Part shown: one piece after another, positions 44,916-45,772 of the stretch
How positions within the stretch are numbered: position 1 is the first letter of the stretch
Layout: every line of letters starts with the position of its first letter
NCBI GenBank assembly: GCA_964016885.1
Contig: CAXHJY010001286.1
Location: 82,041-146,040, forward strand
DNA length: 64,000 nucleotides
Direction of reading: 5' to 3'
Origin: Eledone cirrhosa
Taxonomy: Eukaryota
The notes under the pieces: model-generated
What the model was told of the DNA's origin: nothing
Seen by the model: only the letters and a program-made list of their open reading frames with translations
The model's database searches: none
Translations under genes and position numbers: made by a program

Positions 44916-45063
44916 TTATATATATATATATATATATAGGAGGTGAGTTTTATTGTAGTACAATAAAGCAATGCAGATATCGGATAAGAAGCACTCTACA
45001 GTTTGTAGGACTAGAGTATACATAATATATAAGATCAAAAGATGGTTAAATGAGTTCCATGTA

Positions 45064-45130
45064 TTTTATTATGCGCATTTCAAAAACAAATATCATCATG
45101 CAATAACATTTGTGTTTTCATCAGATAAAA
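45064..45130 (-). ncRNA. Type I hammerhead ribozyme
   Basis: Reverse complement of the motif at 22044-22110; core intact. Confidence 0.8.
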
Positions 45131-45249
45131 TAGGAGGACATGATATGAAGGTTAAAAAACACTTGTGGATAGTGCAGTTTTAAATCAACATATGAAAAGT
45201 AGTTTTAGATTGATGTGTGATATTGGGGAAAAAATATCATGTCCTCCTA

Positions 45250-45316
45250 TTTTATCTGATGAAAACACAAATGTTATTGCATGATGATATTTGTTTTTGA
45301 AATGCGCATAATAAAA
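45250..45316 (+). ncRNA. Type I hammerhead ribozyme
   Basis: TTTTAT-CTGATGA(45256-62)-helix II-GAAA-TGCGCAT-A-ATAAAA. Confidence 0.8.
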
Positions 45317-45346
45317 TACATGGAACTCATTTAACCATCTTTTGAT

Positions 45347-45396
<50 letters not shown>

Positions 45397-45611
45397 GTAG
45401 GAGGTGAGTTTTATTGTAGTACAATAAAGCAATGCAGATATCGGATAAGAAGCACTCTACAGTTTGTAGGACTGGAGTATGCATAATATAAGATCAAAAG
45501 ATGGTTAAAGGAGTTCCATGTATTTTATTATGCGCATTTCAAAAACAAATATGTTGATTTAAAACTGCACTATCCACAAGTGTTTTTTAGCCTTCATATC
45601 ATGTTCTCCTG

Positions 45612-45678
45612 TTTTATCTGATGAAAACACAAATATTATTGCATGATGATGTTTGTTTTTGAAATGCGCATAATAAAA
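45612..45678 (+). ncRNA. Type I hammerhead ribozyme
   Basis: TTTTAT-CTGATGA(45618-24)-helix II-GAAA(45661-64)-TGCGCAT-A-ATAAAA. Confidence 0.8.
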
Positions 45679-45710
45679 TACATGGAACTCCTTTAACCAT
45701 CTTTTGATCT

Positions 45711-45772
<62 letters not shown>

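Follow-up and report, generated by a model that had tools for sequence, protein, structure and literature searches.

The question raised by this locus is whether the short, hammerhead-bearing units that occur as inverted pairs in (TA)n microsatellite DNA form a family of their own or are pieces of a larger element, and how such mirror-image copies come to be inserted. The locus lies in a 64-kb window, by which is meant the whole stretch of DNA that was analysed. A sequence-only reading of this window took the units for a young, non-autonomous, self-cleaving family of retroelements. The explanation that best covers the observations as a whole is a different one: very probably, the hammerhead units at the locus belong to the terminal repeat (pLTR) of a Penelope-like element (PLE), inserted here twice as 5'-truncated, head-to-head copies, likely by priming from two ends.

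Exactly four intact type I hammerhead motifs were found when both strands of the whole window were scanned with a descriptor. Three of these had been described before, at 45064-45130 on the minus strand and at 45250-45316 and 45612-45678 on the plus strand, together with a truncated motif at ~45523-45549 (minus strand), and all are borne out by the scan and the sequence; the fourth, at 22044-22110 on the plus strand, belongs to a solo copy and had been overlooked. The core (CUGAUGA..GAAA), the AUA triplet, the palindromic helix III (ATGCGCAT) and the predicted cuts after 45310 and 45672 are as originally claimed; the family hammerhead has the conserved core, an NUH triplet and all three helices. 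Helix II consists of 15 bp with one mismatch, and its two A/G differences still pair, as had been proposed, since both face U. Helix I was given as 6 bp but extends to 8 bp (45248-45255 with 45311-45318). The helix III palindrome AUGCGCAU forms 2 bp in a monomer, costing ~3 kcal/mol, and 8 bp between two copies (-10.5 kcal/mol). Rfam and folding did not lend support: Rfam returned no hammerhead match, whether the cut-off was the gathering threshold or E up to 10, and shuffled sequences fold as well as the 67-nt motif taken by itself (z -0.4 to -0.6). Rfam matches to miRNAs and snoRNAs, hairpin-driven and far under the cut-off, were discarded as chance. Positions below are numbered relative to the predicted cut, with 0 as the first base after it (45311 in the first plus-strand copy and 45069 in the minus-strand copy).

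As the earlier reading had seen, each insert is an inverted pair with (TA)n on either side; its two arms, one tailed and the other untailed, are joined head to head. Insert 1 is preceded by the TA-rich target microsatellite (44857..44937). Its tailed arm (44938..45237, minus strand) carries the 3' end of the element from ~-166 to +130, including the first intact hammerhead, and is 98.6% identical to an ORF-bearing copy (L031) and 96% identical to a full-length copy (L074). The 'tail' itself (44938..45016, minus strand) is the ~80 nt between two sites at which 3' ends occur (+50 and +131), and contains AATAAA. The two arms have ATAT in common at their junction (45234..45237), from which the untailed arm (45234..45345, plus strand) runs from -77 through the second hammerhead into a TA-like short end, with 100% identity to L031 over 112 bases. 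A (TA)n tract (45346..45394) separates the two inserts. In insert 2 the tailed arm (45397..45549, minus strand; +131 to ~-20) contains the truncated hammerhead, matches L073 at 100% over 151 bases, and at its 3' end retains ATTA of the 5' UTR ahead of (TA)n. The untailed arm (45549..45715, plus strand) starts exactly at a hot spot at -124, contains the third intact hammerhead, and shows 100% identity over 167 bases to both L081 and L065; (TA)n follows on the right (45716..45769). The solo copy (21981..22150, plus strand) is untailed, lies within a TA array and also starts at -124. Because inserts 1 and 2 differ in sequence type (best match L031 for the former, L073, L081 and L065 for the latter), they are probably independent insertions. 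The unit had been described as ~255 bp long, whereas the arms in the window measure ~300, 115, 152 and 170 bp; a 255-bp class (-124..+131) is, though, common in the genome.

The remainder of the window contains other repeats. At 44216-44315 there is a ~100-bp element with imperfect terminal inverted repeats starting CAGGGTGTCCC and TA on both sides, presumably a mariner-type MITE. A tandem array of about nine 45-bp units occupies 27993-28391, and a TA-flanked repeat at ~55340-55530 is common to the flank of another insert (L032:281-450), with the same translated stretch. No host gene is evident among the window's ORFs of at least 90 aa, nearly all of which are microsatellite frames.

The unit in the window is almost certainly the pLTR of an autonomous, ORF-bearing Penelope-like element with Hydra-clade motifs. 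The plan of this element is a pLTR, one frame of ~800 aa for reverse transcriptase (RT) and a putative endonuclease, a 3' UTR of ~1.1 kb and a second pLTR. In L074 the first pLTR is at 1965-2257, the frame at 2277-4742, the 3' UTR between the end of the frame and 5819, and the second pLTR, followed by (TA)n, at 5819-6111, giving 3,854 nt from one hammerhead cut site to the next. Inverted pairs with wider spacing enclose the RT frame. An RT query of the genome gave 41,462 candidates; 150 matches were scored and all of them showed 95-100% identity, many of them in frames of ~821 codons. A frame of 785-790 aa (from KDIP on), 96-100% identical between copies, is present in 20 of the 20 long-frame loci picked, as is the pLTR, and the arms in the window are 94-100% identical to the pLTRs of ORF-bearing copies. 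The earlier claim of a young retroelement with a Penelope link is upheld. The claim of a separate non-autonomous family is not supported, as the unit is the terminal repeat of an element with intact frames for RT and a putative endonuclease, and the short copies of 255 and 175 bp share the sequence types of the long ones.

The element protein (P0001) is an 821-residue open frame with YRDD, and the seven best Foldseek matches of its structure model (pLDDT 76) are all telomerase RTs. Pfam and PDB sequence and profile searches detected neither RT nor GIY-YIG in P0001 or in pieces of the ORF; Pfam gave a weak RVT_1 match for a homologue (P0009). The endonuclease region contains a YxGxT..R..E..N pattern that aligns with homologues, and the C-terminal part is assigned by ESM Atlas, with a score of 0.95, to a cluster in which 11% of members carry GIY-YIG, a lead only. 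The linkage to an RT and GIY-YIG ORF that had been anticipated thus stands for the RT frame, while the GIY-YIG half is represented by a motif pattern and this lead. Thirteen homologues are 32-42% identical to P0001, and the one that is named comes from a cephalopod. The Hydra clade is defined by RWK and DKT in place of GxKF/Y and DKG, by CxCX5C, CxxC and CxH, and by having no CCHH (Craig et al. 2021, PMC8557442, in the parts covered). Among the picked frames RLRW is found in 20/20, DKT in 19/20, CxCX5C in 19/20, and CxxC..E and CxH in 20/20. The RWK motif reads RWT here, its third residue being T and not K, and reading of P0001 and the homologue alignment showed no CCHH motif. The assignment to Hydra is by motifs, with published Hydra proteins compared by eye. 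On these sequence grounds the element is a new family of a known clade and not a non-autonomous novelty. A reading as a selenoprotein of the Naiad type, with a SECIS element, was dropped, as no TGA interrupts the open frame and the endonuclease region lies at the C-terminus. Residues ~601-679 of P0001 (L074 ~4077-4313) form a disordered insert rich in Asn, Thr and Ser between the RT and the Cys linker that is absent from the 13 homologues; N-rich inserts have been described in rotifer Penelopes (PMC3846280).

Copy numbers were obtained from exact short patterns in the 3.0-Gb assembly. A 24-mer covering one half of the hammerhead motif has 18,367 exact matches, and its reversed control has none, which shows that the motif is not due to chance. 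By exact patterns, the genome-wide count that had been proposed thus comes to these 18,367 halves of the hammerhead; tailed ends number 14,464, as compared with 216 exact pLTR/5' UTR junctions. Arms were mapped at the loci around the first 88 of 100 listed places of the 24-mer (first 25 Mb of contig C1). This gave 109 arms, 5 of them upstream repeats joined to the ORF and 104 terminal. The 24-mer spans the cut site, so that arms ending there are under-represented in the sample; the genome-wide patterns are free of this bias but depend on exact matches. At one locus (L164:676-1257 and 7221-7802) an inverted arm pair is itself repeated in inverted orientation 6 kb off. Contigs from runs X5 and X6 (two other organisms) contain parts of the family. 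Another locus (L217, C2:271842300-271847200) contains a gene of the ribosomal protein S3a family with a single GT-AG intron of ~3.6 kb.

The 3' ends of the 104 terminal arms fall into two fixed classes ~80 nt apart, 50 being long and ending at +130/131 and 54 short, ending at +38..+57. Of the short arms, 44 end at +50, at which point the template is UA-rich and merges with the target. TA-rich sequence adjoins 92 of the 104 arms at the 3' side, in agreement with the proposed targeting of (TA)n. Inverted pairs account for 84 of the arms (42 pairs), and in 38 of the 42 one arm is long and the other short, where half would be expected (p 3e-8); the four exceptions are three short/short pairs and one long/long pair. 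Arms diverge by 2.4% inside a pair versus 7.7% between inserts, and the two arms of a pair share a sequence type. Of the long/short pairs, 19 are directly joined: 9 have an untailed arm that extends beyond the tailed one in the 5' direction, 7 have arms that stop at the same place, and 3 have a nested short arm; fold-back of a single cDNA cannot give the first group. ATTA, the start of the 5' UTR, is retained at 9 of 48 long ends, which indicates that priming is internal, on RNA continuing towards the ORF. A poly(A)-primed 3' end at AATAAA was ruled out, as poly(A) tails are absent and these 9 long ends retain downstream template bases.

We consider it likely that the element's own enzyme uses both DNA ends of a cleaved (TA)n site to prime reverse transcription. 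In such a process the putative GIY-YIG domain would cut both strands in (TA)n; one DNA end would prime at an internal UA-rich site at ~+40..+50 and the other at +131, the junction of pLTR and 5' UTR, with 2-5 nt of TA pairing assisting. Both cDNAs would be extended upstream through the uncut hammerhead, and their 3' ends would then be sealed together through a short microhomology or with a few filler bases, leaving a mirror-image insert. Long and full-length copies could arise from priming at the downstream repeat of a tandem or read-through RNA. In vitro, the PLE protein PAc has two internal RT start sites that define a tail, both strands are cut and extended, and the hammerhead is dispensable, according to the parts of that account covered (PMC11167929). 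Inverted arms and a tail at one end have already been described for PLEs (PMC8557442, PMC3846280, both in part). No account of a one-tail-per-pair count rule, of twin priming at PLE ends or of a capped run-off class for PLEs was found in the literature searched, early Penelope promoter work being outside its coverage.

The 5' truncations also have a preferred position. Of the 68 truncations within -160, 27 fall at -125..-122. Genome-wide, 4,262 copies have a non-template base (not C) before -124 and 4,437 read through. Among the first 100 of the 4,262 as listed, the preceding base is G in 45, T in 44 and A in 11, the template base being C, and G precedes only 7 of 40 other truncations (p 0.003). 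At none of 30 loci viewed does the template sequence extend past -124, so the class is no subfamily variant. Filler plainly explains some of the G residues (L188, L192, L194/195) and the partner arm could template several more (e.g. L185, L198, L199, L193), so that 45% overstates purely untemplated G. Position -124 begins ATAT, a natural microhomology with (TA)n, and the sequence across it, TTC|ATA, resembles an initiator. A stop at ~-124 is seen in 27 of the 71 terminal arms reaching -122 versus 1 of 23 upstream pLTRs joined to the ORF, and its rarity in ORF-attached repeats fits run-off after priming in the promoter-proximal repeat. Judging from the DNA junctions, the balance favours -124 as a capped RNA start at which cDNA runs off with the cap copied: on a capped RNA, cDNAs made from the promoter-proximal repeat would run off at the transcription start, often with a cap-templated C. 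Untemplated G is a mark of cap copying in LINE-1 (PMC4859970, in the parts covered). At the junctions of two loci (L206 and L213) the first 8 bases after -124 are copied again in short tandem runs, which would fit a cDNA end that re-annealed and restarted. There is about an even chance that thousands of inserts are fossil 'strong-stop' products, combining two-site priming at one TA break, a capped and uncut RNA template, cap-copying run-off and head-to-head sealing.

In the hammerhead region, common variants occur at 0 of 12 core columns and at 13 of 86 flank columns among genomic copies, a comparison in which part of the motif is fixed by the search pattern. Eight common variants fall in paired positions; pairing is preserved in every case (A-U/G-U or U-G/C-G; p ~0.008), each variant being one-sided, and 96.9% of alignment cells are paired at the hammerhead. 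Helix II variants in run X6, from another organism, turn U-G into C-G pairs. The covariation that had been looked for was not found in this alignment: two-sided changes amount to one cell, with a score not above shuffles. For use of the ribozyme, 221 pattern matches start at the cut site (position 0) compared with 266 at a control position (-3). Of those viewed, 12 of 30 and 8 of 30, respectively, are true ends (Fisher p 0.41; the class of one locus, L263, was changed on visual inspection), or an estimated ~88 versus ~71. An enrichment of 5' ends at the cut, first suggested by two loci (L079 and L141), was not upheld genome-wide. The lack of enrichment indicates that most templates are probably uncut, or religated. 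Hammerheads with a palindromic helix III and weak dimer activity are known in PLEs (PMC4209133, in part). From its sequence, the hammerhead here is likely a real, dimer-dependent ribozyme kept by master elements and mostly left uncut in templates.

In the inverted inserts it is likely silenced by hairpin formation, according to folding models. A transcript across either insert in the window is predicted to join its two arms in one hairpin, at -202 and -131 kcal/mol, which is consistent with the long hairpin RNAs proposed for this locus. The inverted partner arm is predicted to pair with the whole hammerhead motif, burying the ribozyme in the hairpin. The companion proposal of ribozyme-processed RNAs from these loci is doubtful, as the probability of helix I in the inverted pair is 0.000 and starts at the cut site are not enriched.

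A signal resembling RNA editing was seen in one sequencing run, X4. The kind of library is not on record for this run, which is from a different sample than the comparison run X1, and no run is recorded as RNA. Over the terminal repeat (L074:1965-2270), there are 13 differences that reach 5% in X4 while staying below 1% in X1, and each of them is either A>G or T>C. Their 5' neighbours (U 8, A 4, C 1, G 0) resemble those preferred in A-to-I editing by ADAR. In the ORF, T>C is only mildly in excess in X4 (42 places vs 29 and 24), and A>G is not in excess (10 vs 12 and 13). As a lead, the pattern suggests A-to-I editing on both strands of a hairpin RNA. The idea that ADAR edits are written back into the DNA of the family was rejected, there being no A>G excess among rare variants (3.6 vs 7.9 per 1000 cells for T>C).

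Inverted pairs could also form by self-priming or fold-back of one nucleic acid (an antisense-template model), with -124 as a palindrome or microhomology hot spot (CATATG). Fold-back has been proposed for head-to-head Penelope junctions (PMC3846280, in part), the arms of a pair are alike, and the 7 of 19 directly joined pairs that end together, some with a perfect CATATG centre, are what it would produce. However, neither arm contains the other in 9 of the 19, and many -124 arms join partners at unrelated positions, meet (TA)n directly, or are attached through filler bases. The other ATAT sites (-77, -40 and -24) are not hot spots, and the excess of G is not predicted, which leaves this explanation unlikely. 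That the inverted arrangement is an artefact of assembly in TA-rich DNA is exceedingly improbable. The window does lie on a small contig among long microsatellites, and the junctions at this locus are known here from the assembly alone, but the 42 inverted pairs sampled from C1 (first 25 Mb) vary in their junctions and filler bases and show the arm divergence given above, and contigs from public runs also contain opposite-strand joints and loose ends at -124.

The templates could be of another kind if the hammerhead routinely cut and circularised unit-length RNA, the circle serving as template and read-through of the cut site reflecting religation. Such a rolling-circle model has been proposed (PMC4209133, in part) and would account for the core without common variants and for the pair-keeping variants, as well as for the 22 of 38 upstream pLTRs that extend past -125, some through >1 kb of 3' UTR, as either a circle or a tandem RNA allows. 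However, a circle lacks a 5' end, so that run-off with an extra G at -124 could not come from it, and this class makes up about half of the copies holding that 22-mer; ends at the cut are not in excess; and in the one PLE tested in vitro the main template is uncut RNA (PMC11167929, in part). As the routine mode a rolling circle is improbable, and it may explain a minority of long, tandem copies. The 255- and 175-bp copies might instead be a self-propagating derivative, similar to a SINE or retrozyme, with an internal promoter and its own transcript copied in trans. A short class of fixed length in thousands of copies, starting at a likely capped end, would fit this, as would the scarcity of exact pLTR/5' UTR junctions relative to tailed ends, and animal retrozymes have been proposed to derive from pLTRs (bioRxiv 10.64898/2026.07.22.740005, in part). 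Against it, the short copies share the common types of the long ones (e.g. AAAATTG: 10 short, 10 long, 4 other), no type confined to short copies occurs more than once, head-to-tail arrays are absent from the window and the sampled loci, and the 5' UTR bases at 9 of 48 tailed ends point to a template continuing towards the ORF. Neither insert in the window has the 255-bp form, and such a derivative is quite improbable. Two-ended priming on RNA of the autonomous element remains the preferred reading.

Among the closest known systems are other PLEs. Like members of the Hydra clade, in the parts of the source covered (PMC8557442), the element has a single frame with RT followed by a putative GIY-YIG-type domain, RW, DKT, CxCX5C, CxxC and CxH and no CCHH, a type I hammerhead whose helix III is a 4-bp palindrome, placed close to the 3' end and with a motif layout as in File S2 of that source, and (TA)n targets with an inverted, 5'-truncated arm and a tail at one end. 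Hydra-1_Obim, of the same clade, differs in its hammerhead sequence and has no pLTR recorded there (PMC8557442). The unit here is longer, at 3.85 kb with a 1.1-kb 3' UTR, than the '<3 kb' usual for Hydra, a figure that is descriptive and not strict; the tail is ~80 nt compared with a typical 30-40, and helix II is 15 bp compared with 3-7 bp in the listed Hydra motifs (PMC8557442). The family here also differs from the clade in its N-rich insert (~601-679) and its copy number of >14,000.

In LINE-1 twin priming the two segments are copied from separate regions of a single RNA, whereas both arms here repeat the same terminal region and differ by the fixed tail. LINE-1 is alike in that inversion arises by priming on both strands and in its extra 5' G as the mark of a copied cap (PMC4859970, in part). 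Metazoan non-LTR retrozymes are likewise short, non-coding units with type I hammerheads and are related to pLTRs, but form head-to-tail arrays without an ORF, whereas the copies here are head-to-head pieces of an ORF-bearing element (bioRxiv 10.64898/2026.07.22.740005, in part). There is also a mechanistic likeness to PAc (Poseidon, Anolis carolinensis; Frangieh et al. 2024, PMC11167929, in the parts covered), where two internal RT starts bound a tail near the junction of pLTR and ORF, targets are AT-rich, both strands are cut and extended, and insertion needs no hammerhead. PAc belongs to another clade, however, and its starts lie inside the ORF and are non-homologous to the target, whereas both sites here are UA-rich and merge with (TA)n. 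No strand difference was seen in the use of its start sites, in contrast to the 38 of 42 pairs here that use one site per arm, and the covered parts of that account contain no capped run-off (PMC11167929).

As a type of element, this family is already known; what is unusual is the readability of its mechanistic footprints. The mechanism of inverted, one-tailed PLE insertion and the role of the hammerhead are little settled, with one protein studied in vitro in the literature covered (PMC11167929, in part). The family is young, with many intact frames, >14,000 insertions and near-uniform ends, and so offers base-exact predictions for an element of the Hydra clade: RT starts at ~+40..+50 and +131, an RNA start at -124 and a ribozyme cut at 0. 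If true, the strong-stop reading would explain the one-end PLE tail and the inverted arms together, and would fix the position of the promoter start within the pLTR at single-base resolution. Hammerhead cleavage would then be bypassed in most transposition events, and by-product hairpins would supply the host transcriptome with substrates for A-to-I editing.
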